Shown here piece after piece: positions 5,744-39,548 of a stretch of 64,000 bases of DNA; position 1 is the stretch's first letter; every line of letters begins with the position of its first letter. Below the pieces are notes generated by a model. That model did not search any database. It was given only the letters and a program-made list of their open reading frames with translations, and was not told the DNA's origin. The position numbers were made by a program, and so were the translations under genes. The DNA comes from an uncultured Candidatus Micrarchaeota archaeon (GTDB lineage: Archaea > Micrarchaeota > Micrarchaeia > Anstonellales > Bilamarchaeaceae), in contig OY970229.1 of NCBI GenBank assembly GCA_963714085.1, positions 1,440,001-1,504,000 on the forward strand, given 5' to 3'.

Positions 5744-5795
5744 TCAGGCGCCGACCATCATCCTCAGCACGTCGCGGATGCCCGGGGCGAAGCCC
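5744..5795. repeat. 52-bp exact direct repeat of the DUF63 gene 3' end (other copy 6597-6648)
   Basis: tcaggcgccgaccatcatcctcagcacgtcgcggatgcccggggcgaagccc occurs at both positions. Confidence 0.95.
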
Positions 5796-5834
5796 TTGCG
5801 CGTAAATCGGCCTCATCCGGGTCCTGTAATCCTT

Positions 5835-6554
5835 TCATTCCCTCGCCAGCATCTCCGTCTCGCGCGCTATCATCCTGGCGCAGTCCTCGCAGAACTCGAG
5901 CCCCCGCCTGGCTATCTCGGTCAAATCCGTGATGTGGGTGAGCTTCTGCATGATGCATGACCAGTGCCTGCAGTTCTCGGTCTCCTTGTCATCCTGCCTC
6001 ATGCCCAAGCTCCGTATGAACACCCGGCCCATCTGGCGCGTGAGCATCGCATCCATTATGCTCGCCACGAGCTCCGGGTCGCCGTATTCCCGCCTTCGCG
6101 GGTCAATGGGCACAGTGGAATAGAACCTCTCGCGCAGTCCATACACGCTGACAAGCGCGCCCGTGCGGTACCTGCCCAGGCCAACCGGCTCGTATTCCGA
6201 CCCTCCCCTCCCTCCGATCTGCAGGCGCAATTCCTTCTCGGTCAGGCAGACGCCTATGATGCCGGGCCCGATGCGGGCCGGGTCTATGGGGCGCGTCCCA
6301 TCCATCGGCACGAGGAACGTCTGCGGGTCTATATGTGCCGCGCCTATGGCTCTTATGATCCACTCGTGGTGCCAGAACAAGCTCACGCCCCTGAGCGCAC
6401 GGCTATCGAGTTCCTGGATGTCGTACCGCAGGGGCTTCGCGGCGTCGCCTTCGGGGCCGTAAGCAGCGAACCTGTCGAGCGCCCTGCGCGCACCCTGCAG
6501 CTCCGGCTGGAGTATGCCCCGCTCGTGCAACAGCCTGAGCTTCGGTCCTTTCAT
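5835..6554 (-). CDS. Archaemetzincin-like paralog 5 (RQMGR, all catalytic ligands lost)
   Basis: CRHWSCIM...FCEDC retained; GRYRTGALVSVYGLR shared with the other paralogs. Confidence 0.7.
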   Translation of the reverse strand: MKGPKLRLLHERGILQPELQGARRALDRFAAYGPEGDAAKPLRYDIQELDSRALRGVSLFWHHEWIIRAIGAAHIDPQTFLVPMDGTRPIDPARIGPGIIGVCLTEKELRLQIGGRGGSEYEPVGLGRYRTGALVSVYGLRERFYSTVPIDPRRREYGDPELVASIMDAMLTRQMGRVFIRSLGMRQDDKETENCRHWSCIMQKLTHITDLTEIARRGLEFCEDCARMIARETEMLARE

Positions 6555-6560
6555 AGGCCT

Positions 6561-6584
6561 ATTGTTGTAAAAAGGATATTTAAT
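6561..6584 (-). promoter_or_regulatory. Conserved TATA promoter of paralog 5
   Basis: Minus strand ATTAAATATCCTTTTTACAACAAT with the same spacing. Confidence 0.7.
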
Positions 6585-6596
6585 CGTTGTGCTGGC

Positions 6597-7439
6597 TCAG
6601 GCGCCGACCATCATCCTCAGCACGTCGCGGATGCCCGGGGCGAAGCCCATTATCATCAGGACGAGCGCGATGTAGCGCTTGTCGCCCGCGTCCATGTCCT
6701 CCTTCATGACGAAATAGGCCGCTGCGAAGGACACCGCTATCTTCACCAGGTAGAACGCGAAATACGTCCGCCCTATCGTGCCGATGCCGCTCGCCACGAC
6801 ATGCTGCTCGAAGTACTGTATGCCGCTTATCCTGGAGAACACGTCTATGACGAAGAACGTGGCAGCGCCGTCCAGCGCATGGCCGGCGACGATGCCAGCC
6901 AGGACGCTGTCCCTGAAATACAGGTACGCGATGGCGGCCGGGACCGCGGCCAGCAGCATCACGGGCACCGCGTAGAGCGCGTACTGCATGAAGGGGACCA
7001 GCAGCAGGAAATGGGGGAGCCAGAGCACGAGCCCTACGTACATGAGCCATTCCATCCTCTTCATCCGATAAAGGACCGCCATGGAGACGAAGAGCAGGGC
7101 CGCGGTGACCAGGTATATCCCGGGCGAGGCGGTGAGGAAGCCGTAATCATAGATGTGCGAATTGAGCACGAGCGCATGCACCGGGGTCACGGGCTTGAAC
7201 ACCCCGCTGCCTATCGCATCCGTGACCACCCGCACGGTGGAGCCCAGGAGCACGAAGCTCAGGACGCCGCAGACGAAGCTCCGGTCGAACGCGATCTTCG
7301 TCTTCAGGTAGCGGTAGAGCAGGTAGACCGCCGCTATCGCGATGATGGCGTAGGTGAGGGTGTTCACGACGTTGTAGCCCTCGTGCGAGAGCAGCGGTTC
7401 GAGATAATAATCATTAATAAAGCTATCCAGAGTAGGCAT
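6597..7439 (-). CDS. DUF63-family membrane protein
   Basis: GYNVVNTLTYA, GHALDGAATF, EQHVV and GFAPGIRD motifs; multiple TM segments. Confidence 0.85.
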   Translation of the reverse strand: MPTLDSFINDYYLEPLLSHEGYNVVNTLTYAIIAIAAVYLLYRYLKTKIAFDRSFVCGVLSFVLLGSTVRVVTDAIGSGVFKPVTPVHALVLNSHIYDYGFLTASPGIYLVTAALLFVSMAVLYRMKRMEWLMYVGLVLWLPHFLLLVPFMQYALYAVPVMLLAAVPAAIAYLYFRDSVLAGIVAGHALDGAATFFVIDVFSRISGIQYFEQHVVASGIGTIGRTYFAFYLVKIAVSFAAAYFVMKEDMDAGDKRYIALVLMIMGFAPGIRDVLRMMVGA

Positions 7440-7442
7440 CAC

Positions 7443-7745
7443 ATGGTTGATGGCCGGAAAAAGCTTATAAAATCCAGCGTCAGGCAGTCCATAGCGAAGC
7501 TGATGGACGAGGCGCAGGACGCCTGGGCCGCCGGCAGGCCCGAGCGCGCCAGGCGCTACGCGCAGATGTCGATGGATCTCGTCAGGAAGCACAAGGTCCG
7601 GCTCAGCGAGGACCAGAAGCGCATGTTCTGCAGGAAGTGCTTCACATGGTGGGTGCCCGGAGACACCGTGAAGCTGGCCTTCGACAAGCGCCACAACGTC
7701 ATACGCATGAAGTGCGCGAACTGCGGCTACACGAGAAGGCTCTAG
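7443..7745 (+). CDS. rnp4: RNase P protein component 4 (Rpp21)
   Basis: ARRY...KRMFCRKC...PG...CANCGYTRR; the real gene is the C-terminal part of the 5964..7745 ORF. Confidence 0.9.
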   Translation: MVDGRKKLIKSSVRQSIAKLMDEAQDAWAAGRPERARRYAQMSMDLVRKHKVRLSEDQKRMFCRKCFTWWVPGDTVKLAFDKRHNVIRMKCANCGYTRRL

Positions 7746-7784
7746 GACAATCATTTTTATATCTTGCTCCGCAATCCCATACTC

Positions 7785-8768: not shown

Positions 8769-8805
8769 CCAAAGGTTTAAATATTTGCCCCGATAATCCT
8801 TGCTC

Positions 8806-11428: not shown

Positions 11429-11432
11429 GATC

Positions 11433-14180
11433 CTATCTCGTCTTGTACCTGAGAAACGCCCCGATCCCTCCGAAACCCGCCAGGAACTGCGCGCCCTCGG
11501 TCGTGTTCGTGGAGACGATCTCGACAGGGATGTTGTTGCCCTTGGCGAGCTCATCCAGGTAATCGAGCAGCAGGATGTCCTCCTTCAGCCTGTATGTCCC
11601 TTGCCTGCTGCAAGTGGGGCAATCGAGCGCCTCTGCCGGTTTCTCCTTGGTGAATATCTCGTCCGCAAAGCCGCACGAAGAGCACACGTAAGAAGCCTTC
11701 CGGTAAAGCAAACCCTCGGAGAGCAGCACCTTCTGCGCCTGCTTGCTGTTTATCGCGTCGCGGACCTGCTTGGCGCCGTAGGTGGCCAGGCCCTCGGAGA
11801 CGACCTCCTTCATGAACGAGTCCACGAGCTTCTTCTCCTTTATGGCCTCCTGGTCGGCGAGCAGCGATTCGCTCTTGGCGAGCACCTCGCGTATGCCGTA
11901 CTCGTCCGTGTAGCCCGTGTCCACGGGGCCCAGTATCTTGAGCTGGTAGTTGAACGGGGACGCTTTGAGGAAGTTGTCCTTGGTCGGGCCAGGGCCTCCC
12001 ACGAGTATGGCCTTTGTCCTGCCCAGGAAGTGCTCGTCCATGGACTCGCCCACGCGTATGTAATATTTCTCTATGGATTCCTCTATGAGGCGCTGGTACC
12101 GCCGGGCGCTGTTATGGACGATGAATCCGTTGGCGACGAAATTCGAATAGACGGGTATGGTGATATCATAGAAGTTTTCCTTGTTTTCGACCGCGCTCTT
12201 CTCGCTTATGGAAGCCACCGTCAGGTCGGAATTATAGAGGTCGAGGAGCCTTTTGTAAATCCTTTCTCCCCTTTCGCTGTATCGGCGCTTCTCAAAGACC
12301 CTGAGTATGTTATGCGCGAAGGCTTCCCTCCCGAGCGGTTTAAGGTTCCTGAAGAAGCAGCTCGCCGCATGGAAGTCCGAGGTCTTCAATCCAAGCTCCT
12401 TCGCCAGCCTGAAGACCTCCCTTCCGTCGATCGGTATCTGGTCGGTGTATTGCTGCCTGAGCGACTTGTCGCACGCCGCCTTCAGCCTCAGCTTCTTGTC
12501 CCTGCGGGTGAAGCCGACGCTCCGCCCGAATCGCCTGAGGGCGTTCCTGTCGCTTATGGAAACGCACCATTGCCTGTTTCCCGTGACGTTCTTCTCCGAG
12601 AATGAAGAGAGTATGCCGAGCCTGAGCAGGAGGAGCTGGACCTTCTGCAGCAGCGCCCGGTCGACCATCGCTATGTCGGCGCCACCGCTTCCCTTCAGGT
12701 ACCCCTCGGCATCGTAAAGCCCGGACAGGAACGCGGCTATCACCTTGTCATCGCACCTTGCAATGCCCTCCGGGATGTCGCGGCTGACCACGGAAACTAT
12801 CCCTGAAGCGATCTGTTTTATCGCGTCGACGAACTCCAGGGAATGTATCCTGATTTCGTAGTACTCCTTTTTCGCGAAACTCCCACGTTGCCCGGTTTTA
12901 TCCACGACGCGGACGACCGGTTCCACACCGATGGCCCTTCTGATGAGGCTGCAATAATCGTCAACAAGCTCCCTTCTGCCCTCGTATATTATTATCCTGT
13001 TCCCGTCCAAGGTCCCATCGCCGCATATTATCCCGAAAAGCCTCGCGAGGTCCTCGTTCCAATATTCGGGGAAGGCCAGCGTGTTACTCGCCAGCCTCTC
13101 CTCGTCAAGTCCGATGCCGTAAATCCTGTAAATCTCACGGAGGTGCGCGTCGGTCGGGGTCTGCTTCCCGCTCTCCATGAAGGAGATGACCATCTGGGTC
13201 ACACCAGCCCTGGAAGCGACCTGCTTCTGTAAAAGCCCCATCCTCAGGCGCGCCTGTTTCAGCCTGCGCCGCTCCTTTTCGTCAAGCACGATGCGCGTTT
13301 TCGGGACGAAGCCGGTTTTCACCCGGCCTGCGTTGCAGTTGATCTTTCTCGCCATGACCAGCCTGTCGTTCTCATCCAGGTCTTTGGCGAACTTCTCCTT
13401 TATCCCGAACTCGCTGAGCACGAAGAACCTGTGATACGGGGTCGCCCTTATCTCGCATGATGGGGCCCGCGTCCTGATGATTATGGAATGCCTAGCCGGA
13501 GTCACGAAACGGTCGGAAACCGGCACCGGGGTCGTCCTAGAACTTTGCATGTCGAGCCCGACCACACCGCGCCCTTCCTCCAGCGTCTCGATGCCCGCAA
13601 TCGCCCCATCCTCCCTGACGACCAGTGTCCCCGCGGAGAGGCACTGCCCTCCCTTCTTGATCTTCTGGTGCGCGGTGGAGTTCATCTTCTTCAGTATGTG
13701 TATCTCCGTGCCCCGCACGAGCGCCAGAGTCGCCTCCCTGCCGTCCATGACCACCACGCCGTAGGAGTCCGTGACCTCCACCATGCGCTGGAGCGGCTCC
13801 AGGAAGAAGCGCGAATCGCAGCGGTAGATCCCGACCTGCAGCTGCTGCGGCGGCTCGAGCGAGAATATCTCTATGTCCGTCTTGGCCGGGTTGTCGGATA
13901 TGTTGCCGCAGAAGACCGCGATGCCGTTCTCCGGCGCCTTCTTGAACAGCTTCAGGTGGCCCATTATCCTCTCGAGGGCGCCCATCACGTTCGTGCGCGT
14001 GGACTTGGATTTTATGTTGGACGCCTGGGAGAGCTCCTCCCGCAGCTTGTTGCCCATCTCGTGCACCGGCGAGCCGGCCGGTATGTAGACCGATATGAGC
14101 TGGGTGCCGCTGCCCTTGTACTCTCCCAGCTTCCTCAGCATCTTCTTGAGGGTGTAGACCTTTTCGCTGTCGACCACCAT
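11433..14180 (-). CDS. prf1: Peptide chain release factor aRF1, intein-containing
   Basis: GSGTQLISVYIP, ASNIKS, YRCDSRF, GGQ|intein|SARRY and FGGIGAFLRY; 404 aa after intein removal. Confidence 0.95.
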   Translation of the reverse strand: MVVDSEKVYTLKKMLRKLGEYKGSGTQLISVYIPAGSPVHEMGNKLREELSQASNIKSKSTRTNVMGALERIMGHLKLFKKAPENGIAVFCGNISDNPAKTDIEIFSLEPPQQLQVGIYRCDSRFFLEPLQRMVEVTDSYGVVVMDGREATLALVRGTEIHILKKMNSTAHQKIKKGGQCLSAGTLVVREDGAIAGIETLEEGRGVVGLDMQSSRTTPVPVSDRFVTPARHSIIIRTRAPSCEIRATPYHRFFVLSEFGIKEKFAKDLDENDRLVMARKINCNAGRVKTGFVPKTRIVLDEKERRRLKQARLRMGLLQKQVASRAGVTQMVISFMESGKQTPTDAHLREIYRIYGIGLDEERLASNTLAFPEYWNEDLARLFGIICGDGTLDGNRIIIYEGRRELVDDYCSLIRRAIGVEPVVRVVDKTGQRGSFAKKEYYEIRIHSLEFVDAIKQIASGIVSVVSRDIPEGIARCDDKVIAAFLSGLYDAEGYLKGSGGADIAMVDRALLQKVQLLLLRLGILSSFSEKNVTGNRQWCVSISDRNALRRFGRSVGFTRRDKKLRLKAACDKSLRQQYTDQIPIDGREVFRLAKELGLKTSDFHAASCFFRNLKPLGREAFAHNILRVFEKRRYSERGERIYKRLLDLYNSDLTVASISEKSAVENKENFYDITIPVYSNFVANGFIVHNSARRYQRLIEESIEKYYIRVGESMDEHFLGRTKAILVGGPGPTKDNFLKASPFNYQLKILGPVDTGYTDEYGIREVLAKSESLLADQEAIKEKKLVDSFMKEVVSEGLATYGAKQVRDAINSKQAQKVLLSEGLLYRKASYVCSSCGFADEIFTKEKPAEALDCPTCSRQGTYRLKEDILLLDYLDELAKGNNIPVEIVSTNTTEGAQFLAGFGGIGAFLRYKTR
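12111..13643 (-). mobile_element. Intein (511 aa) with XRE-type HTH and LAGLIDADG endonuclease in aRF1
   Basis: Starts CLSAGT after GGQ; TPYHRF block B; GIICGDG and LSGLYDAEG motifs; ends YDITI..NFVANGFIVHN followed by Ser. Confidence 0.95.
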
Positions 14181-14742: not shown

Positions 14743-14843
14743 ACCTTCAAGTGGGCGTCAAACGTCTTCTATTGCCCTGCGACCTTTTATTAATATTATG
14801 CCGGATAAGCTTATTTTGTAATAACATCTTCAGGGCAACAAAC

Positions 14844-17800
14844 ATGTGCGGCATCATCGGCTATGTCGGCAACAGGAAGGCTTCCGAAGTCATCACCGAA
14901 GGTCTCAAAAGGCTCGAGTACCGCGGCTACGACTCGGTGGGCATGGCCGTGTCACAGGGCAGTTCGATAGAGCTGCGCAAGGACAAGGGCATGGTGGAGC
15001 AGGTCTCCGATGCGCTGGATTTCACCAGCGTGTCCGGAACCATGGGCCTCGGCCACTGCCTGCATCCTGACACCATGGTCCAGCTCATGGACGGGACCGT
15101 TTGCCGGATAGGCGCTGTCAAAGATGGCGATGCAGTCAGCTCCATGGACTTCGGGTCTCTCCGGTTGCACCAGCGGGACTGCAGGGTCATGCGCCACCGC
15201 GCCCCCCAGGAGATGTTCGAGATCAGGACCCCGGCGAATTCCATAACCTGCACCGGAGAGCATCGGATGTTCGTAGCACAGGGTGATGGCTTTGTCGAGA
15301 GGGCCGCCTCCGAGTTGCGCAGAGGTGACCTCCTTCTCTGCGTTTCCAGAATCGCGGTGGCCGGCGTCTCGCAGCCACTTTCCCCGGTTTCGGTAAAACG
15401 ATACTACGCGTACACTAAATCCACTGTAGGACGTTTTAAGGAGTTCCTGAGAAAAAACAACTTGGAAATCGCAGAAGCGGCATATCACATGGGCGTGAGC
15501 AAGTCTGTCTTACGCCATTTTCTTGGCATGGACCGCAATCTCGAGGAAGCATATCTTGAAAAGCTATGCGTGTTCGCTGACATCGAGAAGGATGAGTTCA
15601 CCCCGGTGCATTCCATACACGGGAAAAACATAACGCTTCCTGCCAGGACCAGCGAAGACCTTCTTCAATTCATGGGCTATCTCACTGGCGATGGCTATAT
15701 AGGCCCGAGGCACATTCGCTTCAAGGATGCCCGCAAAGAGGTCTTGGAGAAGTACGCGGTGCTCGCGAAACAGCTATTCAACCTGGACAGCAAGATAATC
15801 AAGCTTCCAGAAGCTGACGCTTTTATGCTCGAGATGAACAGCAAATTCGTCTGTGACTGGATGCGCCTCAATTTCCATGAGATTTACAAGAAAGGCAAGG
15901 AAAAACGCCTCCCGGTCTGGCTCGGAAGAGTGCCTGATGACGAATTGCGCGGTTTCATAAGAGGCTTTTTCGATGCTGAATCCGCTTGCGCTACCACGTC
16001 TCACCAACTGGTTCTCGTGAGCACGGTTGAGACTATCATCCGGACGTTACAACTCTTTCTTCTGCGTTTCGGCATCCTTTCGTCTTTAATGAAAAGGCGG
16101 ACGGAATGGGGGCCGGCGTTCTCATTGAGCCTGAACACTTACGATGACATCTCGAAATTCGTGAGATGCGTTGGTTTGACATCAAGCGAGAAGAACCATA
16201 AACTCGAGCGAATTCTCTCCGAGATGACGCCCGGCTTGTCTTTCACCTACAAGCCGATTCCGATGCGCAATGAAGCCATAAAACGCAGGTATGGAGTAGA
16301 TCATGCAGGCCCCGGCAATTCCTACATGAGTCCTATGGTAGCTAAGAGGCTGGTCACACAGCTTGAAGACGACGGGGACCCTGCCGCCGGACAACTCGGC
16401 AGATATCTTGATTCCGATGTCATATTCCAGGAGATCTTCGAGATAACACGCCACGCGTCTGATATCGAGTATGTATACGATATTGAAGTTCCTGGTACTG
16501 AAAACTTCGTCGCAAATGCTCTGATAAGCCACAATTCCCGCTGGGCGACGCACGGCGCGCCATGCAAGGAGAACGCGCATCCCTTCGTGGACTGCACGAA
16601 GAAAATCGCCCTAGCGCACAACGGGGTGCTGGAGAACTACCTGGAGCTCAAAGACGGGCTGAAGAAATCAGGCCACAAGTTCAGCTCCGAGACGGATTCC
16701 GAAGTCGTGGTCCACTTGGTGGAAGAGGAGAGGAAGAAGCTCCCGCCGCTCAAGGCGTTCATGGCCGCGGTCAAGAGGCTGAAGGGCTCCTACGCGCTGC
16801 TCTGCACCATGGCGGACGGAGCGGAGACGCTCTACTGCGCGAGGAGGAACAGCCCGCTGGTGCTCGGCATCGGAGAAGGCGAGATGTTCGCGGCGTCCGA
16901 CATCCCGGCCATGCTCGCTTATACGAAGACGTTCGTGCCGCTGGAGGAAGGGGACATCGCGGCGCTTTCCAAGAACGGGTACAAGGTCTACGACGTCAGC
17001 GGCAAGGAGGCGACCAGGAAATCCATCACTGTGGACTGGGACCTGGATATGGCTGAGAAAGGAGGCTATCCGCATTTCATGCTCAAGGAGATAATGGACC
17101 AGAAGCACTTCGTGCGGGAGAGCCTCGCCGCGGATGTCACGAAGGCAAGGTCGCTGCTCGACTCCCATGACGACATAGACATAATAGCCTGCGGGACGTC
17201 CTACCACGCGGGCACGATGCTCAAGATACTCCTCTCGAAGGAGCTGGGGAAAAGGGCCGAGGCGTTCATCGCGTCCGAATATCCGTTCGTCGCGAACCCG
17301 GACAAGAAGACGCTCATCATCGCGATATCTCAGTCCGGCGAGACCGCGGACACCATGCAGGCCGTGAGGTTCGCGAAAAGCAGGGGCTCCAAGGTGCTCA
17401 GCCTCACAAACGTGGTCGAGTCCTCCATCACACGCATATCGGACGAGGTCGTCTACCTGAACGCGGGGCCGGAGATATCCGTCGCTGCCACCAAGACGTT
17501 CACTTCACAGGCCGCCGTGATATACAAGCTCGTCCTGGGTTCCGGGAGGCTCGCCGCGGTCCCGTCGCTCATAGAGAAGGCGATGGACGAGGAGAGCGCC
17601 ATCAGGGCGGTGGCGGCCAAGATCTCGGACAAGAAGGACATGTTCTTCATAGGCAGGGGGCTGAACTACCCGGTCGCCATGGAGGGCGCGCTCAAGCTCA
17701 AGGAGATATCCTATCTGCACGCGGAGGCGTACGCCGGAGGGGAACTGAAGCACGGCCCGCTCAGCCTGATAGAAAAAGGGGTCCCGGTGGTCGCAGTGGC

Positions 17801-18065
17801 TCCAAAAGACGATTCCCTCGCAAAGATATTCGGCAACATAAAGGAGGTCAAGGCAAGGGGCGCGTTCGTGGTCGCGCTCACGGACGACGAGGACGTGCGC
17901 AGGGAGGCGGACGTCTCCATCCCGCTGCCTTCCAGTGCGGACACCGTGCTATATCCTTTCCCGGAGATAATCATACTGCAATTGCTCGCCTACCACGTTT
18001 CAGTCCTGCGCGGCATAAACCCGGACCGCCCCAGGAACCTCGCAAAGAGCGTGACAGTGGAATAG
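14844..18065 (+). CDS. glmS: Glutamine-fructose-6-phosphate aminotransferase, intein-containing
   Basis: MCGIIG start, EYRGYDS, GH|intein|SRWATHG, SQSGET and NLAKSVTVE. Confidence 0.97.
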   Translation: MCGIIGYVGNRKASEVITEGLKRLEYRGYDSVGMAVSQGSSIELRKDKGMVEQVSDALDFTSVSGTMGLGHCLHPDTMVQLMDGTVCRIGAVKDGDAVSSMDFGSLRLHQRDCRVMRHRAPQEMFEIRTPANSITCTGEHRMFVAQGDGFVERAASELRRGDLLLCVSRIAVAGVSQPLSPVSVKRYYAYTKSTVGRFKEFLRKNNLEIAEAAYHMGVSKSVLRHFLGMDRNLEEAYLEKLCVFADIEKDEFTPVHSIHGKNITLPARTSEDLLQFMGYLTGDGYIGPRHIRFKDARKEVLEKYAVLAKQLFNLDSKIIKLPEADAFMLEMNSKFVCDWMRLNFHEIYKKGKEKRLPVWLGRVPDDELRGFIRGFFDAESACATTSHQLVLVSTVETIIRTLQLFLLRFGILSSLMKRRTEWGPAFSLSLNTYDDISKFVRCVGLTSSEKNHKLERILSEMTPGLSFTYKPIPMRNEAIKRRYGVDHAGPGNSYMSPMVAKRLVTQLEDDGDPAAGQLGRYLDSDVIFQEIFEITRHASDIEYVYDIEVPGTENFVANALISHNSRWATHGAPCKENAHPFVDCTKKIALAHNGVLENYLELKDGLKKSGHKFSSETDSEVVVHLVEEERKKLPPLKAFMAAVKRLKGSYALLCTMADGAETLYCARRNSPLVLGIGEGEMFAASDIPAMLAYTKTFVPLEEGDIAALSKNGYKVYDVSGKEATRKSITVDWDLDMAEKGGYPHFMLKEIMDQKHFVRESLAADVTKARSLLDSHDDIDIIACGTSYHAGTMLKILLSKELGKRAEAFIASEYPFVANPDKKTLIIAISQSGETADTMQAVRFAKSRGSKVLSLTNVVESSITRISDEVVYLNAGPEISVAATKTFTSQAAVIYKLVLGSGRLAAVPSLIEKAMDEESAIRAVAAKISDKKDMFFIGRGLNYPVAMEGALKLKEISYLHAEAYAGGELKHGPLSLIEKGVPVVAVAPKDDSLAKIFGNIKEVKARGAFVVALTDDEDVRREADVSIPLPSSADTVLYPFPEIIILQLLAYHVSVLRGINPDRPRNLAKSVTVE
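15057..16535 (+). mobile_element. Intein (493 aa) with LAGLIDADG endonuclease in glmS
   Basis: CLHPDT...TGEHRM...GYLTGDG...IRGFFDAE...VYDIEV..NFVANALISHN followed by Ser; visibly more AT-rich than the host gene. Confidence 0.95.
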
Positions 18066-31211: not shown

Positions 31212-31316
31212 GGTCCCACTCCCGCAATATGCCTCTGGATTATGAATATCCTGTTATATTTATTAAGTTACCCGCACCGCTCCTCTTTAAAATACCTTTG
31301 TTACATAAATTATAAC

Positions 31317-32705
31317 ATGCCAAAGGACTCGCCGCCAGTCTCTTCCATGGTCACAACGCCAGAGCCTCACGCCAGGCCGCACCCCAGGCCGAAATTCCCC
31401 ACACCCGAGCCCGAGCGCAGCAGCAGGCCAGAGTCCCAAGAAGACGATCTGGTGGGGAAGGTGCTCGACAACCGCTATCTCATCATCAAGCGCATCGGTG
31501 AAGGCGGCATGGGGCACATATACCTTGCCACCAACAAGAATATGCCGGGCAGGATGTTCGCAATAAAGGTGCTGCGCAAGGACCACAGTTTTTTCCAGAA
31601 GGAGGCCATGGCAGTCCAGAAAATCGGCCACGACGGCATAGTCAAGGTCTACGACTATGGCGTGATTGAAGACGGGAAAAAAGACCGGCCTTACCTGGTC
31701 ATGGAGTACCTGGAGGGCGTGGACGTGGGCGGACTGCTCGAGAAGAAGAAGCGGCTCAGCTGGCCAGTGGCCAGGGACATAACACTGCAGGTCTGCGCCG
31801 CGCTCCAGGCGGCCCACGAGAATGGCGTGATCCACCTGGACATGAAACCCCAGAACGTGTTCCTCTCAGACCCCGAAGGGAAGGATTCCGTGAAGGTCCT
31901 GGATTTCGGAATCGCATGGCTTCCCGAAAGCGTGGCCGGCATAGAGTCCTCTTCGGCCAAGGGCTTCGTGGGCACCGCGGCCTACGCGCCGCCCGAGCAA
32001 TCCCGCGGTTCCAAGGAGTGCGACCACCGTTCCGATATCTATGCAGTGGGCGTGATGCTCTACGAGATGCTCTGCGGCAGCCTACCGTTCGTCAGCACGA
32101 GCGTCAGGGAGACCAGGCTGATGCACGCCGAGTGCGCGCCCCCGCCTTTCTCGACCTACGGGCAGACCAGCGGCATACCGGACGGAGTCGAGGCGGTGGT
32201 CATGCGCTGCCTCGAGAAGACCAAGGAGGGGCGTTACCAGTCCATGACCGAGTTCGCGCAGGCGCTTCTGGCCGCGGACCAGAAGTCGCGGCAGCTCCTG
32301 GACATGCCCGACGTGCTGCAGGAGGACGACCACGAGAGGCCTCCGCGCAACAGGATGGAATCCTCGTCATTCGTCGGATGGATCGCCGCAGCGCTCATAG
32401 GTGTCGCGGCGGCCTGGGGGATCTGGGCCCACAGCAAAGGCAGCGGCGATGCCCCGGTTGAACTGAGACAGGACGCGCAGCCCGCACTGGCCGAGACGCC
32501 TGACGCTTCGGCAGAGCGACCTCCAGAGAAGAAGGAGCAGCCCAAGAAGCCACACAAGCCGCACAGGGCGCACCGGTCGAACGCCGGGAGCCATCCAGAA
32601 GCGCAGCCATCCCAGAATGAGGGGCATCCGCCCGCCAATCAGGCCAAGACCCTCCTCGGTCAGCCGGTGGACGATTCGGCTGAAGAGGGCTATTCTCCGG
32701 AATGA
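31317..32705 (+). CDS. PknB-type membrane Ser/Thr protein kinase
   Basis: GEGGMG, AIKVL, HLDMKPQN, DFG, GT..Y.PPE and SDIY; TM helix and Pro-rich tail. Confidence 0.9.
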   Translation: MPKDSPPVSSMVTTPEPHARPHPRPKFPTPEPERSSRPESQEDDLVGKVLDNRYLIIKRIGEGGMGHIYLATNKNMPGRMFAIKVLRKDHSFFQKEAMAVQKIGHDGIVKVYDYGVIEDGKKDRPYLVMEYLEGVDVGGLLEKKKRLSWPVARDITLQVCAALQAAHENGVIHLDMKPQNVFLSDPEGKDSVKVLDFGIAWLPESVAGIESSSAKGFVGTAAYAPPEQSRGSKECDHRSDIYAVGVMLYEMLCGSLPFVSTSVRETRLMHAECAPPPFSTYGQTSGIPDGVEAVVMRCLEKTKEGRYQSMTEFAQALLAADQKSRQLLDMPDVLQEDDHERPPRNRMESSSFVGWIAAALIGVAAAWGIWAHSKGSGDAPVELRQDAQPALAETPDASAERPPEKKEQPKKPHKPHRAHRSNAGSHPEAQPSQNEGHPPANQAKTLLGQPVDDSAEEGYSPE

Positions 32706-32725
32706 AGCCGGAGCGGTGAAAGCAT

Positions 32726-32741
32726 TCGGGCCTGGAGGGAT
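32726..32741. repeat. 16-bp exact copy of the tRNA-Lys 3' end (other copy 33487-33502), att-like
   Basis: tcgggcctggagggat at both positions, bracketing the 32749..33483 gene. Confidence 0.85.
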
Positions 32742-32748
32742 CATACGC

Positions 32749-33483
32749 ATGAGAACCATGAACCATGTCCAGCAGGCTGCCGGGGAGAAGGCAGGCTGGA
32801 ATCCCAGGATGCGCTACGAGGTGCTCAGGGGCCCGGACGACATCAAGGTCCTGGACCGCGAGCGCGATTATTTCCTGGTGCTCTCGCGGAAAAGCCATCA
32901 CTACCTGGGCGCAGTGCATTTCTTCAGGCCGGGCCTCACCAGGGACGGGCAGGTGTTCTCGCACATACCAGTCACCGCCACGTGGCTGCGCGGATATCCT
33001 GCGGAAGTACGGAGACTGAAAATAACGCCCGGGCTCCAGTATCTCGAGGTCGGCGCAGGATACGGCGGCTTCATACCGCGCGTGCTGCTCGGGTCCCGGC
33101 AGGGCTCGCCCAAGCCGATAATCATAGACTCCGCTGATTTTGACGCGATGCACGGCCTCCTGTCATACGCGAAGGCGCGCATCGGGTTTCCGGACCGCAT
33201 CAGCGGTATCGTGGACAAAATCCTGGAGCGGCATGAGCTGATCACGGACTCCGGCAAGGTGCGCCTCATCAACATGAACCTCGGCGATGCGCTGCGCAGC
33301 TTTCCGGACCTTGCGGGAATCGCGGACGTCCTGGTGGACAGGTGCGGGGCCATAAGCTATCCCGAGCTCGAGACGCTCGACGGCGAGAAGCCTGAAAAGG
33401 GGGTCGTCGCGCGTAGGGTCTCGGACCTTGAGAGCATGCTGTTGAAAAAAGGCGGGGAGATATTCACCCTGGGCGTTTGCTGA
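32749..33483 (+). CDS. Class I SAM methyltransferase-like hypothetical protein
   Basis: YLEVGAGYGG motif I, IIID, and a C-terminal LLKKGGEI strand. Confidence 0.6.
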   Translation: MRTMNHVQQAAGEKAGWNPRMRYEVLRGPDDIKVLDRERDYFLVLSRKSHHYLGAVHFFRPGLTRDGQVFSHIPVTATWLRGYPAEVRRLKITPGLQYLEVGAGYGGFIPRVLLGSRQGSPKPIIIDSADFDAMHGLLSYAKARIGFPDRISGIVDKILERHELITDSGKVRLINMNLGDALRSFPDLAGIADVLVDRCGAISYPELETLDGEKPEKGVVARRVSDLESMLLKKGGEIFTLGVC

Positions 33484-33487
33484 GGAT

Positions 33488-33561
33488 CGGGCCTGGAGGG
33501 ATTTGAACCCTCGGCCTGCGGATTAAAAGTCCGACGCTCTACCAAGCTGAGCTACAGGCCC
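33488..33561 (-). tRNA. tRNA-Lys(UUU)
   Basis: GGGCCTGTAGCTCAGCTTGGTAGAGCGTCGGACTTTTAATCCGCAGGCCGAGGGTTCAAATCCCTCCAGGCCCG folds as a cloverleaf; anticodon TTT; no intron, no encoded CCA. Confidence 0.95.
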
Positions 33562-33771
33562 GGAAGCGAAACGAGGCCCGATGCCTGAAGGCATGGTTTC
33601 CTGTTTCGTTGAAGATACTTGCCCATAATGCTTATAATGGGTAGGGCTTTCTTCTCCGCAGAAACCGCCCTCGGCGTTCCAAAACAATCCATTCCGGCCC
33701 GCGCTCCTCAGGGCATGAAGGATTTAAAAACACCTCACGATAAACGATATACCTTTGTGGCAGTTGATCCG

Positions 33772-34344: not shown

Positions 34345-36525
34345 TCAGAGCCTGCTGCGCGGGACCCTCACGACCGTATCCTTGTTGGCGCCCAGGTCCC
34401 TGCGCCTATCCGCGTTCTCAGCGAGCGTCCTCGCCATCTTCCTGTAGTCCTCTGCAGGGGCGCCGGGATAGACCGCGGTTTCCAGCATCTTCGGCCTCTT
34501 GGGGTTCATGTCGAAGCCTATCAGCGCGACCGGTTTCGCATTCTCGATTACCTCCACGAGGAACCGCTCCGAAGGCAGGGTCTTGAGCCCCTGCCTGAAC
34601 CTGGCATCGAGCTGCCTGTTGGCTTCCGCCGGGACGTCCAGCCCTATCGCTTCGGGCTTCGGCTCGCCGTTGCCTTCGGACGAAGGGAGCTTCTCCAGGG
34701 AAGCTATCCGCGCCCTGCTTCTCGCATGCGTGATCTCGAACACCAGCACGTTTAACTCTCCGGCGAGCTTCCTCCTCATCCTTGCGAGGTCCTCGGTCCG
34801 CACCCCGCAGGCCTCCAGCGCCTCGTTCCCCGGCGGGTTTATCGCGACCACTCCGGATTCGACCAGGCTGAACCCGTTCTGGACCATGCCCCGGAGCGTG
34901 GCGTCTGTCGCAGAATAATCCGGGCCGAATGTCGCTATGACCGTGGGAGCGAAAGCGAGGTTCTCATGGACCGCCTGGAACAGTTTCGTGAGCGCTTCTG
35001 TGGAGAGCCTGTGTATGCTGTGCAGGATTACGGTGTCGGCCTCAAGCACGCGGCACCCTTCGAGCGACTTGAATCCCCCCATGGGGACGTGATGGGGGTC
35101 TATGTCCGCTCCGGTCTCCTCGGCCGCCCTCGTGAGCGGGTCGGGGTAGAGCGACACGCACGCGACAGAGCCCTGCAGCAGGTTCCCGAAGCACCTTATC
35201 AGCCCTGCCATCTCCCTGAACGCGGAGAGGTTGCGCAGCCTCCTTCCCAGCGCCGCATCGCTTGCGTCCGTCCGCTCGCCGCGCTCGAGCGCGAGCTCCA
35301 CCGCCTGGTCCGCGGATAGCCCCTGCCCGGCGCAGAAGGCGAGCCAGACCGACGGGTTCGTGCACAAGCGCGCCTGGACCGTCTCATCGCTCACCCCGGT
35401 CGACCTTGAGATGGCGCGCACAGTGGCCGGGCCCGGCAGCGACGGAATCCTGTCCATGATTATCCGGTCCACGATTTCATAGCCCCTGGTCCTGGCCTTC
35501 CCGAACGGGCAGCTGCACAGTTCCCTGTTCGACATCCTCTTGAGGAAAACCTCGTCGCCCGCTCCGTCCATCCAGGCGATCGCCCGCGCCTCGGCCGCAT
35601 CGCGCAGCGCTGTATCGGAATCATATGCCTCCTGGACCGTGTTGCGGCTTATGGTCAGGGCTTCCGCGAGCGCGTTGGCCGACGGGATTCCGTCGAAAGA
35701 CTCCAGCCTGCTGGCGATTATCGCTTTGAGCCTGTCGCGGATTTTCCGCTTGGCGTTCTTGAAGCTGCAGTTGTTCGCTTCGGTGCTGCTGAGATTGTCC
35801 AGGAACCGCTGCTCCTCCAGGCCGTCCAGCCATTGGACCGCCCTCGCCTCTGCGGCATCCTTCAGCCCGGGGACGGACTCGAAGCACTTGGTTATGATGC
35901 GGGTGCTGAGCCCCATCGCCGCGGCCAGCGCCGTTGCGGACGGCAAGCCTTTGAACGAGGGTATCTTCTCCTTGGCGATTATCCGTCCGAGGATTTCGCG
36001 CGCCCTTGCCTTGGCCCCATCGAAATCGTTCAGGTCCTTTTCGATCTGGACGAATTTGCTCACGAACTCATCGTCTTTAAGGGTCCCCATCCAGGCCACC
36101 GCCCTCTCTTCCACAGCAGGGCGCATGGCAGCGTTCGCCCTGAAGCGCCTGGAAATCGCACGGAACCCCAGGTGCATTTCCTCCGCAAGAGCCGTGGGCG
36201 TGGGCAGCCCGTCGAAAGACGCGATTCTCCTGAGGATGAATCCGTCCAAGAGCCCGTGCATCCTGGCATTGGCCTTTTCGTAAGGGCAGGTCGTCAGCTG
36301 CGAGCCGCTTATCGTGCGCAGCAAGGCCCCTTCGTCAAGGCTCTCCAGCCATTCCACCGCCCTCGCCTCTGCAGCATCGCGCAGCGACGGATTCGAGTTG
36401 AGATGGCGGTTTATCGCGTGGATGGACACGTCGGGAATCGCGTCATGGAGCGCGGTGGCTGAGGGTACGCCGTCGAACGATGGCAAGAGCGCGAGTATCC
36501 TGCTGTCAAGGTCCCTCTTCGTCAT
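34345..36525 (-). CDS. Protein with about 4.5 tandem ~86-aa GntR-like HTH repeats
   Basis: Repeated SFDGxPSxTALA...RDAAEARAxxW units. Confidence 0.75.
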   Translation of the reverse strand: MTKRDLDSRILALLPSFDGVPSATALHDAIPDVSIHAINRHLNSNPSLRDAAEARAVEWLESLDEGALLRTISGSQLTTCPYEKANARMHGLLDGFILRRIASFDGLPTPTALAEEMHLGFRAISRRFRANAAMRPAVEERAVAWMGTLKDDEFVSKFVQIEKDLNDFDGAKARAREILGRIIAKEKIPSFKGLPSATALAAAMGLSTRIITKCFESVPGLKDAAEARAVQWLDGLEEQRFLDNLSSTEANNCSFKNAKRKIRDRLKAIIASRLESFDGIPSANALAEALTISRNTVQEAYDSDTALRDAAEARAIAWMDGAGDEVFLKRMSNRELCSCPFGKARTRGYEIVDRIIMDRIPSLPGPATVRAISRSTGVSDETVQARLCTNPSVWLAFCAGQGLSADQAVELALERGERTDASDAALGRRLRNLSAFREMAGLIRCFGNLLQGSVACVSLYPDPLTRAAEETGADIDPHHVPMGGFKSLEGCRVLEADTVILHSIHRLSTEALTKLFQAVHENLAFAPTVIATFGPDYSATDATLRGMVQNGFSLVESGVVAINPPGNEALEACGVRTEDLARMRRKLAGELNVLVFEITHARSRARIASLEKLPSSEGNGEPKPEAIGLDVPAEANRQLDARFRQGLKTLPSERFLVEVIENAKPVALIGFDMNPKRPKMLETAVYPGAPAEDYRKMARTLAENADRRRDLGANKDTVVRVPRSRL

Positions 36526-36615
36526 TTATAACGTTGTACTTTATGTATAAACGCTTTTATAAATCCTCTTCGCCCCTGGGCTCATTAATTAATACCTTAT
36601 CTGCGATATCCGGCC

Positions 36616-36999
36616 ATGGTCCTCTGTTATCGCAAGGGCTCGCGCGCGGAGCACGAGCTCATAGACTATTTCTCCCAGAAAGGATACTGCGTGATACGCG
36701 CGGCCGGCTCGGGCGTCAACTCCCTCTCCCCGGACATCCTCGTCTTCAGGCGCGGGGTGCAGTGCGGCATAGAGGCAAAGGCGCACGAGACCACCTGCCT
36801 CGGGATAGACCGCGAGCAGTTCGAGAACCTCAGGAAATGGGAGGACGTGAGCGGCATAAACTGCTATATCGGGTGGAGGCGCAGCCGCGAGCCCTGGTAC
36901 TTCGTGCCCCTATCGGTCTTCAAGGAGAACGAGAAGAGCTTCTCGGTCAACTGGGGCCAGGCGCAGGCTGTGGGGAAGAAGCTCGAGGAGTTCGGCTGA
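36616..36999 (+). CDS. hjc: Archaeal Holliday junction resolvase
   Basis: KG.RAE.EL, RAAGSG, PDIL and IEAK. Confidence 0.93.
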   Translation: MVLCYRKGSRAEHELIDYFSQKGYCVIRAAGSGVNSLSPDILVFRRGVQCGIEAKAHETTCLGIDREQFENLRKWEDVSGINCYIGWRRSREPWYFVPLSVFKENEKSFSVNWGQAQAVGKKLEEFG

Positions 37000-37069
37000 C
37001 CCCACAAAGCCACTAAAAAAGAGACATACTTTTTTATATTGTTCCAATCACAACATATCCTGGGGTATC

Positions 37070-37555
37070 ATGAAACTTCACGGAAACAATCCGGGCATCG
37101 TGAAAGCCGGCGCAGCAAAAACCGCCAGGAACGAGTTCAAGACAAGCTCGTTTTCCGGGCGGCTGCGCACGGGCGTAGTCGCCAGCGCATTGTTCGCAGC
37201 GTCCGTGACCGGATGCGCCGAGACGTCTTATTCGGACAGGCAAAGCACGCCGAATCTGGTTGCTAAGGTGGACCAGCAGAAGACAGGCGACGGCGATAGA
37301 CTCGATACGACGATTGCTGGCGTGCTTGCCGCGACCGGATTCATGACAGCGATCGGGGTTTTCGCGTACTATTCCGGCAAGAAGGAGATGCCATCTGAAC
37401 GCGTCATGGTCCTATTTACTCTCGACATACTGGCTTCTGCCTGGTTAGTGGGATACGCTGCCACTGACGGGCGTATGGGCGGCGGTCCCCAGCCACTGTC
37501 CAATTCTCCGTTCCCGTACGGGTCTCCCACGATAAGCCTGCCGGGCCATCGCTGA
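37070..37555 (+). CDS. Putative lipoprotein with two TM helices (paralog A)
   Basis: SFSGRL..G.VA.ALFAAS..GC lipobox-like leader shared with 38074..38571. Confidence 0.65.
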   Translation: MKLHGNNPGIVKAGAAKTARNEFKTSSFSGRLRTGVVASALFAASVTGCAETSYSDRQSTPNLVAKVDQQKTGDGDRLDTTIAGVLAATGFMTAIGVFAYYSGKKEMPSERVMVLFTLDILASAWLVGYAATDGRMGGGPQPLSNSPFPYGSPTISLPGHR

Positions 37556-37660
37556 TTTCCCCGCTTGCGATATCCTGGTGTCAGCTCATTATCCTCTTCA
37601 TCCTTGAGTTCCAGTAGCGAGGGCGCAATCTTTAAATCAACATCGGGCACAGAATCATTC

Positions 37661-37912
37661 ATGACCGAACAACTCCAGCTGAAGCAGCCCAATCCCCTAT
37701 CCGAGGTCCATGTGTACCAGAAGGTCCAGTCCGAAAACAGGTTCTCGGATCTGAAGACGTGGCTGACCAGCATAGATCCCCATCTTGGCGAGTGCATAGA
37801 CAAGGGGAAGTTCGTCCTCTCGCTCGCGAAGATCGAGAACGTGACGCTCGCCGTCAACGTCGGCCCCACAGGCGCGAAGAAATTCACCTTCGGGTTCGAC
37901 GTCAGGTTCTGA
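37661..37912 (+). CDS. Small hypothetical protein
   Basis: TTTAAA about 25 nt upstream of the ATG at 37661; ends FTFGFDVRF. Confidence 0.5.
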   Translation: MTEQLQLKQPNPLSEVHVYQKVQSENRFSDLKTWLTSIDPHLGECIDKGKFVLSLAKIENVTLAVNVGPTGAKKFTFGFDVRF

Positions 37913-37913
37913 G

Positions 37914-37957
37914 TATCTCTTCCATCCTCTCTATCCGATAATTGGTCACCGCCACGC
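37914..37957. repeat. Displaced copy of the kae1 3' end (39/44 identical to 38583-38626)
   Basis: Minus strand encodes VAVTNYRIERMEEI then LRT-stop; all five mismatches are synonymous. Confidence 0.92.
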
Positions 37958-38073
37958 TGCGCAGATAACCCGCCAGCCTGACGTTATGAGTACCTGGTCC
38001 TTGTTGCCACAAAAATACTGAAAGGGACATACATTCTTATATAGTTTGAATTACAACTTATTCCGGGGTTCCC

Positions 38074-38571
38074 ATGAAAAGTTCTATTAAACATTCTGGC
38101 GTAGTCGAGGATTCTGCAGCAGTCAAGAAAATCGCCTCCCGCAACTCGTTCAGGTCCAATTCCTTCTCAGGAAGGTTGTGCTCCGGCCTGGTCGCCGGCG
38201 CACTGTTCGCGGCTTCCCTTGGCGGTTGCGCGGACACTGCCTATTCACAGAAGCAGAGTTCGGGCGGAGAAGCAATCACACAGCCGGATAAAGGAAAAGA
38301 CCTGACTCCGCTGGATAACGCGATTATCAGCACGTTTGCCTCAGGAGCTGCCGGTTTTGGGCTCTATGAAGGTGAAGGCAGCAAGGTTGACAAGTTCCAG
38401 ATCGTGACTATTTCAACGCTCTCGTTTGCTGTTTTGTTTTTAACGCTCGAAGCGGTAAGGCACTCGAATAAGCATGGAAGCTCCGGGGGATATCCGCCCG
38501 TAGGATGGTCGCTGTGTGGCGATTGCGTTGATCCCGCACCCGCGCAGTCCATGGGTCCGATTCAGCGCTAG
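38074..38571 (+). CDS. Putative lipoprotein with hydrophobic segments (paralog B)
   Basis: Same leader and similar upstream promoter as 37070..37555; more AT-rich than neighbours. Confidence 0.65.
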   Translation: MKSSIKHSGVVEDSAAVKKIASRNSFRSNSFSGRLCSGLVAGALFAASLGGCADTAYSQKQSSGGEAITQPDKGKDLTPLDNAIISTFASGAAGFGLYEGEGSKVDKFQIVTISTLSFAVLFLTLEAVRHSNKHGSSGGYPPVGWSLCGDCVDPAPAQSMGPIQR

Positions 38572-39548
38572 CGCCGCTTCATTATCTCTTCCATCCTCTC
38601 TATCCTGTAATTAGTGACAGCCACGCACTTCTTCACCGACATCGCGCCGTATTTCCTGAAGAGAACCTCTCCGGCGTAAGCGATCATGGCGCCGTTGTCG
38701 CGGTTGAACTCGTTGGGCGCCACGCCGAACTCGACCGAGTCCTCCTTGCACATCGTGCCGAGCATCTCCTGCAACCGTTTGTTCTGCGCGACCCCGCCGC
38801 AGCAGATGAGCTTTTTCTTCTTGGTCAGGAACAGCGCGCGTTCCGTGGCCTCGCACGCCATGGCGAACGAGGTCTCCATGAGCGAGAACGCCAGATCGTT
38901 CCTCTTCGCCCCGCCCTTGTGCAGCTTCTCAGCTGCGGTCAGAAGCCCAGAGAACACCAGGTTCATGCCTTTCACGCTGTAGGGGAGCTCGATGTATCTT
39001 CCGCCGGACGCGAGCTTCTCGAGCTGCGAGCCGTGGGCGTATTTCAAGCCGATGACCCTGCCGAAGCTGTCGAACAGGTTCCCGATCCCTATGTCCAGCG
39101 TCTCGCCCAGGACGTGCCACGCCCCAGCTCTCCTGACCAATATCTGGCTGTTCCCTCCGGAGAGATAGAGCACGAGCGGGTCGCGCAGGCCCGTCAAGTG
39201 CTCCGAGACCGCGATGTGGGCGTAGCAGTGGTTCACTCCGATTATTTTCTTGCCGAAGCGGCCCGCGAGATAGCGCGCCCCGGCTATCCCGACAGCGAGA
39301 GGGGAGCCGATGCCAGGGCCCTGGGAGAACGCAATCAAATCAACATCTTCCATGCGCATGCCCGCATCGGAGAGCGCCTTTTCAAGCACAGCGCCGAACA
39401 CATCCGCATGGTGGTCCGCTGCCTTCCTCGGGAGTATGCCTTCCTCCTTCGGCCTGTAGACGTCCGCTGCGTTGGAGAGGACCTTCCCATCCTTCACGAT
39501 TCCCACGCCCAATGTATGCGCCGTGCATTCGACGCCTAGAGTTATCAT
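38568..39548 (-). CDS. kae1: tRNA t6A threonylcarbamoyltransferase Kae1/TsaD
   Basis: LGVECTAH, FSQGPG, NHCYAH, LSGGN, GETLD and DNGAMIA. Confidence 0.96.
   Translation of the reverse strand: MITLGVECTAHTLGVGIVKDGKVLSNAADVYRPKEEGILPRKAADHHADVFGAVLEKALSDAGMRMEDVDLIAFSQGPGIGSPLAVGIAGARYLAGRFGKKIIGVNHCYAHIAVSEHLTGLRDPLVLYLSGGNSQILVRRAGAWHVLGETLDIGIGNLFDSFGRVIGLKYAHGSQLEKLASGGRYIELPYSVKGMNLVFSGLLTAAEKLHKGGAKRNDLAFSLMETSFAMACEATERALFLTKKKKLICCGGVAQNKRLQEMLGTMCKEDSVEFGVAPNEFNRDNGAMIAYAGEVLFRKYGAMSVKKCVAVTNYRIERMEEIMKRR

Follow-up and report, generated by a model that had tools for sequence, protein, structure and literature searches.

Accessory genes bracketed by two copies of a core-gene 3′ end in a Micrarchaeota genome: possible scars of gene capture through short homology

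In the genome of an uncultured Candidatus Micrarchaeota archaeon (GenBank assembly GCA_963714085.1), accessory genes sit directly behind unrelated core genes and are bracketed by two copies of the core gene's 3′ end. Three such loci lie in a 64,000-nucleotide (nt) stretch of contig OY970229.1 (positions 1,440,001 to 1,504,000 of the forward strand), which is part of one 1.57-Mb contig. This stretch is referred to as the window, and its own numbering is used below. The docking genes are a DUF63 membrane-protein gene, a tRNA-Lys gene and kae1. The feature is real, genome-wide and actively turning over, and a plausible mechanism can be given for it. In our judgement, the loci at protein genes stand about an even chance of being scars of a Campbell-type gene capture through short homology.

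Direct comparison of the repeats reproduced the architecture that a sequence-only reading of the window had described, namely a core 3′ end, one gene and a second 3′ end. The DUF63 pair (5744–5795 and 6597–6648) is identical at 52 of 52 positions and the tRNA-Lys pair (32726–32741 and 33487–33502) at 16 of 16. The kae1 pair (37914–37957 and 38583–38626) agrees at 39 of 44 positions, and all five differences are synonymous. The repeat periods are 853, 761 and 669 nt for DUF63, tRNA-Lys and kae1, with inserts of 801, 745 and 625 nt that hold a single gene each. The DUF63 52-mer and the tRNA-Lys 16-mer occur exactly twice each in the 1.57-Mb genome. No integrase or transposase had been noticed in the window; a Pfam scan of 62 open reading frames, picked from 270 of at least 70 amino acids (aa), bore this out with 0 matches to either. 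An assembly artefact was ruled out for two of the loci. Independent short-read contigs from run X1, possibly the source sample, cross both tRNA-Lys repeats (31516–33654) and both kae1 junctions (37714–38368 and 38342–39238) with 0 differences; this evidence covers these two loci, and the 52-nt DUF63 repeat exceeds the contig word size.

We called 1342 genes with our own hexamer model and scanned for the last 75 nt of each gene recurring outside called genes within 5 kb. A non-coding tail copy was found downstream of 13 of 1219 genes (16 copies, 0.4–2.4 kb away), compared with 0 of 1219 in the upstream control (Fisher p = 2.4e-4) and 0 of 1377 in the inverted control. Permutation of tails against the downstream DNA of other genes gave 0, 0 and 0 of 1218. 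This enrichment confirms the wider habit of which the sequence-only reading had taken the three loci to be examples. Head and mid-gene controls yielded 1–5 genes each, and those inspected were paralogues or repeat proteins; one control hit was a 61-nt internal fragment copy at g167. Duplication of 5′ heads was rejected, as the inspected candidates (g85, g120, g488 and three in the relative G001, introduced below) proved to be paralogue or repeat-protein matches.

The genes with tail copies include unrelated housekeeping genes, for which short names are our labels for Pfam families: a pyridine-nucleotide disulphide oxidoreductase gene, an amino-acid-kinase-family gene, a YgjP-like gene, atpD, gdh, TYW3 and rtcB. 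The rest of the 13 are uvrC, rpp29, an ABC permease gene, DUF63, kae1 and one gene without a family. An additional case, g278, has its copy at 5.6 kb. Left out of the counts were g1341 (a repeat region), tRNA-Ala (two tRNA genes), g735, g1033 and g1293 (paralogues) and g874, where the second copy belongs to the end of an element that we read as TnpB-like; g131 was retained in the raw 13 though its tail is not ancestral in G001. The cargoes lie in both orientations and comprise nucleotidyltransferase/HepT pairs, a sigma-70-like gene, an argC-like gene (at uvrC) and orphans. Cargo stop codons abut or overlap the new gene end, and the left boundary is abrupt at every copy, so that each unit has a one-sided homologous anchor and a non-homologous second joint. 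Arrays had been expected to grow by such insertions. Stacks do exist outside the window, with three cassettes at atpD and two at gdh, but the paralogue arrays at DUF63 and kae1 are mostly not visibly built in this way: only one of five archaemetzincin-like genes and one of two lipoprotein-like genes are tail-bracketed.

A relative of the same genus (G001; mean nucleotide identity 80%, 1.279 Mb examined) showed that the sites exist without their cargo. At DUF63, kae1, tRNA-Lys, atpD, rtcB and TYW3 the cargo is absent from G001 and synteny is restored, so empty alleles were found for all three window loci. The remaining sites of the window's genome (G000) were not judgeable in G001 owing to a short contig, broken synteny or the lack of an orthologue. 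Four G001 sites are empty in G000. In G001 the scan returned 8 of 1099 genes for the downstream side and 0 of 1110 for the upstream side. Of the 8, six are clean, and all but one of the six have cargo (C5 splits a gene, C48 is a pilin-like paralogue unit, and C3 lacks a cargo gene). Only g278 is hit in both genomes, with differing boundaries (about −84 versus −51). Outside the genus, no case was found among 167 genes in 200 kb of G068 or 199 genes in 200 kb of G083, and none of 27 atpD loci from other genera had a tail copy within 1.5 kb; one case was seen on contig L172, and G065 holds an internal atpD fragment. An enrichment in the genus is suggested, with a difference from other genera that is not significant (p = 0.06–0.10). 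Neither three tail patterns nor the tRNA-Lys cargo matched anything in viral contigs.

One cassette is found in both species. Behind the orthologous gene g259, a two-gene cargo, toxin-antitoxin-like by our reading, is common to G000 and G001 at 93–97% identity per block, against the genome mean of 80%. G001 carries a 69-nt tail copy with G000-type codons, and G000 has the cargo but no copy.

Some units have peculiarities of their own. At the YgjP-like gene (L050:2673–3843) the 33-nt repeat extends 15 nt beyond the stop codon and the insert has 39% GC. This repeat holds the reverse complement of a tRNA T-loop-like word, is absent from the G001 tail and may be a different kind of element. Tandem sigma-70-like genes (regions 2–4) occur, in an archaeon, at L049:2648–3982 and 4156–5427; a tail bracket encloses the first as cargo, with the promoter inside the unit. 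A small cargo gene at L052:2233–2598 is 86% identical to one at an unrelated site in G001 (C13:7205–7570) that has no tail copy, and a 61-nt fragment of the L052 gene recurs 1.9 kb away in G000. At L172:480–1270, atpD itself, a core gene, is the cargo, lying between two copies of a tail segment of the upstream atpB-like gene.

The two copies of a tail differ in the manner of working genes. Across 19 in-frame pairs (omitting atpD3, gdh2, g278, g131, C5 and C48) we counted 66 synonymous and 33 non-synonymous differences, with proportions of 0.36 (pS) and 0.05 (pN), and 61 of the 99 fall at third positions. In the comparison of silent and replacement changes that had been proposed as a check, the differences are thus mostly synonymous; both copies must once have been gene ends in separate lineages, which argues against a local duplication followed by decay. 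Under that explanation, the tail and its neighbour would have been duplicated in tandem, or the target truly duplicated at a break, after which the cargo would have diverged rapidly and the tails undergone gene conversion. The exact 52-nt DUF63 repeat, the paralogy of cargo to nearby genes at several sites and a cargo GC near that of the host (0.52–0.62 in the window) would agree with it. A dead copy should decay randomly, however, and not preferentially at silent positions; the DUF63 cargo, A5, is an outlier to all seven local paralogues and a sister of none; 11 of the 16 cargoes tested have no paralogue in G000; and the C-terminus of kae1 has been replaced. We consider local duplication very unlikely.

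Further signs that tail and cargo move as one piece come from the polarity of the differences and from the g259 cassette. With G001 as outgroup for 11 repeats, the outgroup sides with the in-use gene at 11, 24 and 3 sites in successive thirds and with the copy at 4, 6 and 10 (p = 0.042). The 5′ part of the displaced copy is more often derived or foreign (38 versus 20 polarised sites). Such a gradient is the pattern that one crossover within the repeat would leave, if the incoming DNA had its cargo end already joined to a tail. At kae1 a foreign 5′ part is followed in the copy by an ancestral 3′ continuation, and the sequence after the copy is ancestral at kae1, TYW3 and DUF63; the exact DUF63 pair is uninformative on donor or resident origin.

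These data also bear on capture of linear DNA by homology-facilitated illegitimate recombination. In that case a crossover over long homology in the gene body would be paired with an illegitimate joint 20–80 nt before the recipient's stop codon, making the in-use tail entirely donor and the copy entirely resident. Variable boundaries, cargo homologous to a neighbour, the order with new units in front, synonymous differences and the ancestral sequence after the copy at kae1, TYW3 and DUF63 are all explained, and passages of PMC5361080 propose such a process for the immunity arrays of type VI secretion systems (T6SS). The excess of derived or foreign sites in the 5′ part of the copies and their gradient, measured against a distant outgroup, lean against it, as do the other-species codons of the g259 copy. 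It also leaves the fixed boundary at atpD (see below) unexplained, and DprA and ComEC were not found. We regard linear capture as quite unlikely.

The cargo itself gives an indication of its source. It is a diverged homologue of a resident neighbour at DUF63 (27–33% identity), rtcB (41%), the amino-acid-kinase locus (36%) and kae1 (43%), and also at TYW3. With cargo so often homologous to the resident neighbour, its probable source is the corresponding chromosomal region of relatives, and not a general mobile pool.

Short-homology capture would proceed as follows. A piece of a related lineage's chromosome, comprising the last 18–84 nt of a core gene and one or two following genes, would close into a circle or arrive already bracketed by two tails. 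A single crossover with the recipient inside the 16–80 nt of tail homology would then leave the core gene with its promoter and body, a near-equivalent new end and the cargo directly behind; a hybrid tail, with a donor 5′ part and a resident 3′ part, would remain downstream. The bracketed unit could be re-excised, passed on and stacked before older units by the same recombination, with no integrase aboard. The enzyme might be RadA, which is present in the genome, or a RadA-independent short-repeat pathway. Gene 3′ ends would dominate if events at 5′ ends swapped the promoter and if long repeats popped out again. We favour this mechanism because the targets are many and unrelated, with a single gene common to the two genome scans and differing boundaries there, and because boundaries at coding sequences (CDSs) vary without shared arms, unlike those of the tRNA-Leu, -Asn and -Glu units. 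The synonymous excess, the polarity gradient, the neighbour-homologue cargo and the g259 cassette support it as well, as does the lack of a viral carrier and of an integrase within 30 kb downstream of six atpD loci. An RNA-based route was ruled out, since many cargoes are antisense to the docking gene.

A different origin is suggested by the site-specific recombinases of this family. G000 encodes three tyrosine recombinases (open frames of 408–449 aa, 41–61% mutual identity), each beside a tRNA and outside the window, and 60 of 99 family genomes have matches to such enzymes. The search for XerA or other tyrosine recombinases that the sequence-only reading had advised therefore did find recombinases, but none of the three matches is XerA-sized. 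Fixed cores of 12–14 nt and conserved arms characterise the integrase-type units at tRNA-Leu, -Asn and -Glu. Such units are stacked on G000:C1 at tRNA-Leu (498324 and 304582), at a tRNA at 637309 and at tRNA-Glu (1308139), with three behind one tRNA-Leu and two behind tRNA-Glu. The tRNA-Lys repeat of the window has AT in front of a 14-nt core, an arrangement found at several tRNA units; recognisable arms were found neither there nor at DUF63 or kae1. The tRNA-Lys unit is thus rather probably an integrase-less relic of the family's tRNA-targeting tyrosine-integrase elements, and the three window loci, which had been presented as one class, probably do not form one.

The protein-gene units could be relics or satellites of the same kind, resembling cis-mobilizable elements (CIMEs), if trans-acting tyrosine integrases, many since lost or belonging to one relaxed family, had recombined an attP site carrying a replacement gene tail. 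Besides the recombinases and the integrase-less tRNA units with conserved arms, a boundary fixed in five stacked atpD copies and an excess of one word in the arms speak for this origin, and for tRNA-Lys it is the best reading. It would likewise predict synonymous divergence and a copy with a foreign 5′ part. It also accords with PMC5704250, where housekeeping-gene 3′ ends are given as usual targets of integrative and mobilizable elements (IMEs), and with PMC8371274, in which the archaeal integrase IntpTN3 is described as recombining with low sequence specificity. The roughly 20 CDS targets in two genomes are, however, unrelated and almost none is common to both; left boundaries range from −18 to −84 over all CDS-tail units and differ at gdh, at g278 and, in G065, at atpD. 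CDS-tail units share no arm or dyad, an arm inverted repeat exceeding all 40 shuffles in only 2 of 24 units. No tyrosine recombinase lies near any CDS site in G000, and in the six cases where atpD and a listed integrase lie on one contig, no integrase is found within 30 kb downstream of atpD, the other contigs being short. Nor was a serine recombinase found above the cut-off, with one sub-threshold match. Finally, cargo is often a neighbour's homologue or a core gene, such as the argC-like gene at uvrC and atpD on L172. For the protein genes we think a trans-acting integrase unlikely, though less so than linear capture.

Several observations weigh against short-homology capture. The left boundary falls within about −63 to −71 in each of the five atpD copies, which come from G000 and from the sister contig L166 of a second species; a fixed boundary is what an integrase site gives, and random fragment ends do not predict it. 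These copies have silent variants and one cargo in common, and they may descend from one junction that was reused, which is our way of reconciling them with capture through short homology. The word TCGGG occurs at varying distance in 7 of 27 cassette-side arms, where 0.7 are expected (corrected p ~0.005), and a similar word is present in the arms of the tRNA-Leu integrase units. Tails of 16–50 nt are short for RadA. DprA, ComEC and a reverse transcriptase were not found in this 88% complete genome. No excised circle or empty allele is listed among the contigs of runs X1–X4, at ~5x depth and with X2–X4 covering little. The DUF63 repeat is exact, yet its cargo is only ~30% identical to the neighbours, which would therefore require a very close donor or a later homogenisation of the tails. 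The polarity test, moreover, is weak: the outgroup is distant, the sites depend on one another, and we placed the boundaries and some edge sites manually.

Beyond these mechanisms, the loci might reflect an undescribed, general capture pathway of this Micrarchaeota genus, in which the last 20–80 coding bases of any core gene serve as an attachment site. Minicircles tagged with a tail and holding one or two genes would cross between species and be inserted by a dedicated host factor or a relaxed tyrosine integrase of ~410 aa, as a distributed integron-like system without attC or platform. A relaxed integrase is hinted at by the constant boundary at atpD and by TCGGG in the arms. We hold this to be decidedly improbable.

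The three window loci differ in what can be recovered of their history. The DUF63 gene (6597–7439, minus strand; 280 aa, Pfam PF01889, start by gene call) is 86% identical to its G001 orthologue and ends in the in-use tail at 6597–6648 (minus), its last 52 nt including the stop codon. Its cargo A5 (5835–6554, minus; 239 aa) is archaemetzincin-like by weak family-level matches and lacks an HExxH-like motif. A5 is the most divergent member of the local family, with 27–33% identity to A1–A4 and three G001 paralogues; a homologue search with it matched A5 alone. The displaced tail copy (5744–5795, minus) follows, and the sequence beyond it matches the G001 sequence beyond the DUF63 stop codon. The resident array A1–A4 (2750–5686, minus) is not tail-bracketed, and its upstream regions share a promoter-like motif. 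Behind DUF63 there are five archaemetzincin-like genes in G000, three in G001 and none behind the DUF63 3′ end in G002. The archaemetzincin label is tentative: the Cys cluster is kept in 5 of 5 genes, but of the HExxHxxGxxH zinc motif that marks Peptidase_M54, HEAGH is intact in A2 only, degenerate in the others and absent in A5, family matches are weak (PDB 2x7m, E = 0.13; an Atlas lead with 10% Peptidase_M54), and a Pfam scan of the family gave no match. In G002 the DUF63 gene is split between two contig ends (L241:2270–2296 and L242; the ends of G002:C49 and C64). The break falls some 66–71 nt ahead of the stop codon, the two pieces overlap by 6 nt and 15 bases are unrelated; a repeat element or a further cassette may have been inserted there.

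The tRNA-Lys(TTT) gene (33487–33562, minus; ARAGORN) has its last 16 nt, 33487–33502, repeated at 32726–32741 (minus). The 244-aa cargo between them (32749–33483, plus) is rare, with four homologues at 36–81% identity, and is found in 0 of 98 other family genomes; no such cargo lies between the kinase gene and tRNA-Lys in G001. The gap between its stop codon and the end of the tRNA is 3 nt, that between the repeat and its start 7 nt; with the cargo crowding the limits of the unit in this way, a promoter of its own does not fit inside. Read on the plus strand, the copy of the tRNA end puts GGAGG 10 nt before the cargo ATG, a possible ribosome-binding site. The cargo has no Pfam match, and we read in it a glycine-rich motif typical of class I S-adenosylmethionine methyltransferases; an Atlas lead, Methyltransf_11 at 0.90 and rank 16, is weak. 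The G001 tRNA-Lys(TTT) (C13:42200–42760) carries two intron-like inserts, one in each of its D and T loops, and was missed by ARAGORN. Three short non-coding units behind it end in GAGGCCCG, like the tRNA's own end.

At kae1/TsaD (38568–39548, minus; 326 aa, Pfam TsaD) the in-use gene, with its repeat copy at 38583–38626 (minus), has the replaced C-terminus EEIMKRR; the G001 orthologue ends in EEILRTSRRTRK, which is also what the displaced copy encodes, except for a new stop. That displaced tail (37884–37957, minus) consists of the repeat at 37914–37957 and the continuation of the ancestral C-terminus at 37884–37913. The cargo (38074–38571, plus; 165 aa) is lipoprotein-like and convergent with kae1, both stop codons overlapping in a single CTAG. 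It is 43% identical over 97 aa to a second lipoprotein-like gene (37070–37555, plus), which has no recognisable tail bracket, and neither gene was found in G001. The ancestral kae1 tail overlapped with the 3′ end of a convergent, conserved 83-aa gene (37661–37912, plus), which matches G001 at 78% of nucleotides. This gene directly abuts kae1 in G001, and the insertion in G000 left it intact.

Elsewhere in the window, a 726-aa gene (34345–36525, minus) has internal repeats of ~86 aa and a weak GntR match and was not found at its G001 position. The eRF1 gene (11433–14180, minus) and a glmS-like gene (14751–18065, plus) each contain an intein with a LAGLIDADG domain, and rtcB, elsewhere in the genome, has an intein match too. 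An intein in release factor 1 seemed unusual. A 556-aa protein (24696–26366, plus) with a RelA_SpoT match (E = 6e-9) adjoins a protein kinase gene, in an archaeon. A 67-nt direct repeat (62417–62483 and 62778–62844; 79% identity, 361 nt apart) lies at the starts of related reading frames.

The gain of accessory genes in tiny DPANN genomes has been little studied, and here about 1% of genes bear a readable scar of a single-gene gain. Such scars give the donor allele, the crossover zone and the order of arrival, which makes the origins of accessory genes testable by comparative genomics. Whether some 'paralogue' arrays are in fact xenologues captured from relatives likewise becomes directly testable. 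Essential genes such as kae1, atpD, rtcB and rpp29 are among those whose C-termini are swapped by incoming DNA. We judge it an evenly poised question whether genes from relatives repeatedly arrive with a spare core-gene tail and land behind that gene without carrying an integrase; if so, this would supply a concrete mechanism for the unexplained class of insertions with long target duplication.

Integrons are built of units of one or two genes with the newest first, and depend on the integrase IntI, attC sites and a single platform. The units described here resemble them in size, in order and in their arrays at atpD and gdh, but there is no IntI, no attC-like shared end and no single platform. 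The CDS sites have no adjacent integrase, and their repeats are unrelated in sequence, without a common arm or inverted repeat (assessed without an attC covariance model). In the literature, of which our coverage was partial, we found no description of genome-wide tail-bracketed cassettes in Micrarchaeota; PMC2853133 has further repeat cases, which may lie over gene ends.

The CIMEs and the tandem accretion of integrative and conjugative elements and IMEs, as presented in PMC5704250, are similar in placing integrase-less units between two 3′ ends of tRNA or housekeeping genes, with new units before old, and no integration or transfer genes are present on our units either. In that account, CIMEs retain the attL and attR sites of a defined integrase and use few hot spots, whereas the CDS units here lie behind some 20 unrelated genes, with no shared arms and no cognate element at the sites examined. 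A fixed crossover with arms was seen at tRNA-Leu, -Asn and -Glu, and among CDSs a fixed boundary at atpD only. CIME accretion thus fits the tRNA units and perhaps atpD, and the tRNA-Lys unit may be a CIME.

The T6SS effector-immunity arrays of Vibrio cholerae (PMC5361080; for the process also PMC2884548) share an upstream homologous anchor, insertion of the new module first, a displaced old 3′ end and members that are not sisters. As portrayed there, they are restricted to toxin loci with a variable 3′ domain, whereas here ordinary housekeeping genes throughout the genome provide the anchors and the copies resemble hybrids of donor and resident. The microcin H47 island of Escherichia coli (PMC5426353) likewise has no recombinase of its own, is excised as a circle and integrates through RecA-independent recombination within identical blocks (11–20 bp) of imperfect direct repeats, leaving hybrid sites. 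It is a single 13-kb island with repeats of 144–148 bp, for which the relevant sections of that paper describe neither coding tails nor a genome-wide occurrence. Both the arrays and this island are working analogues of the present loci.

The closest described class is the insertion with long target duplication, on the account that PMC2853133 gives of it: small units without integrase or transposase, unique direct repeats some tens of bases long, sites that are empty in relatives and an unexplained enzyme. Two of its Haemophilus influenzae repeats overlap gene 3′ ends. Our inserts of 625–801 nt are within its range (<20 kb), and a unique flanking repeat of >30 bp is present at DUF63 (52 nt) and kae1 (44 nt) but not at tRNA-Lys (16 nt). 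The cargo in that class is described as restriction-modification genes; no scanned cargo here has a Pfam match of this kind, the weak methyltransferase lead at tRNA-Lys being the only hint. There, too, the repeats are read as target duplications, a reading with which the synonymous divergence and the foreign 5′ parts seen here do not agree. What sets the present loci apart is that the repeats are coding tails ending at or near the stop codon, that they differ synonymously in the manner of alleles from two lineages, and that about one gene in a hundred carries them.

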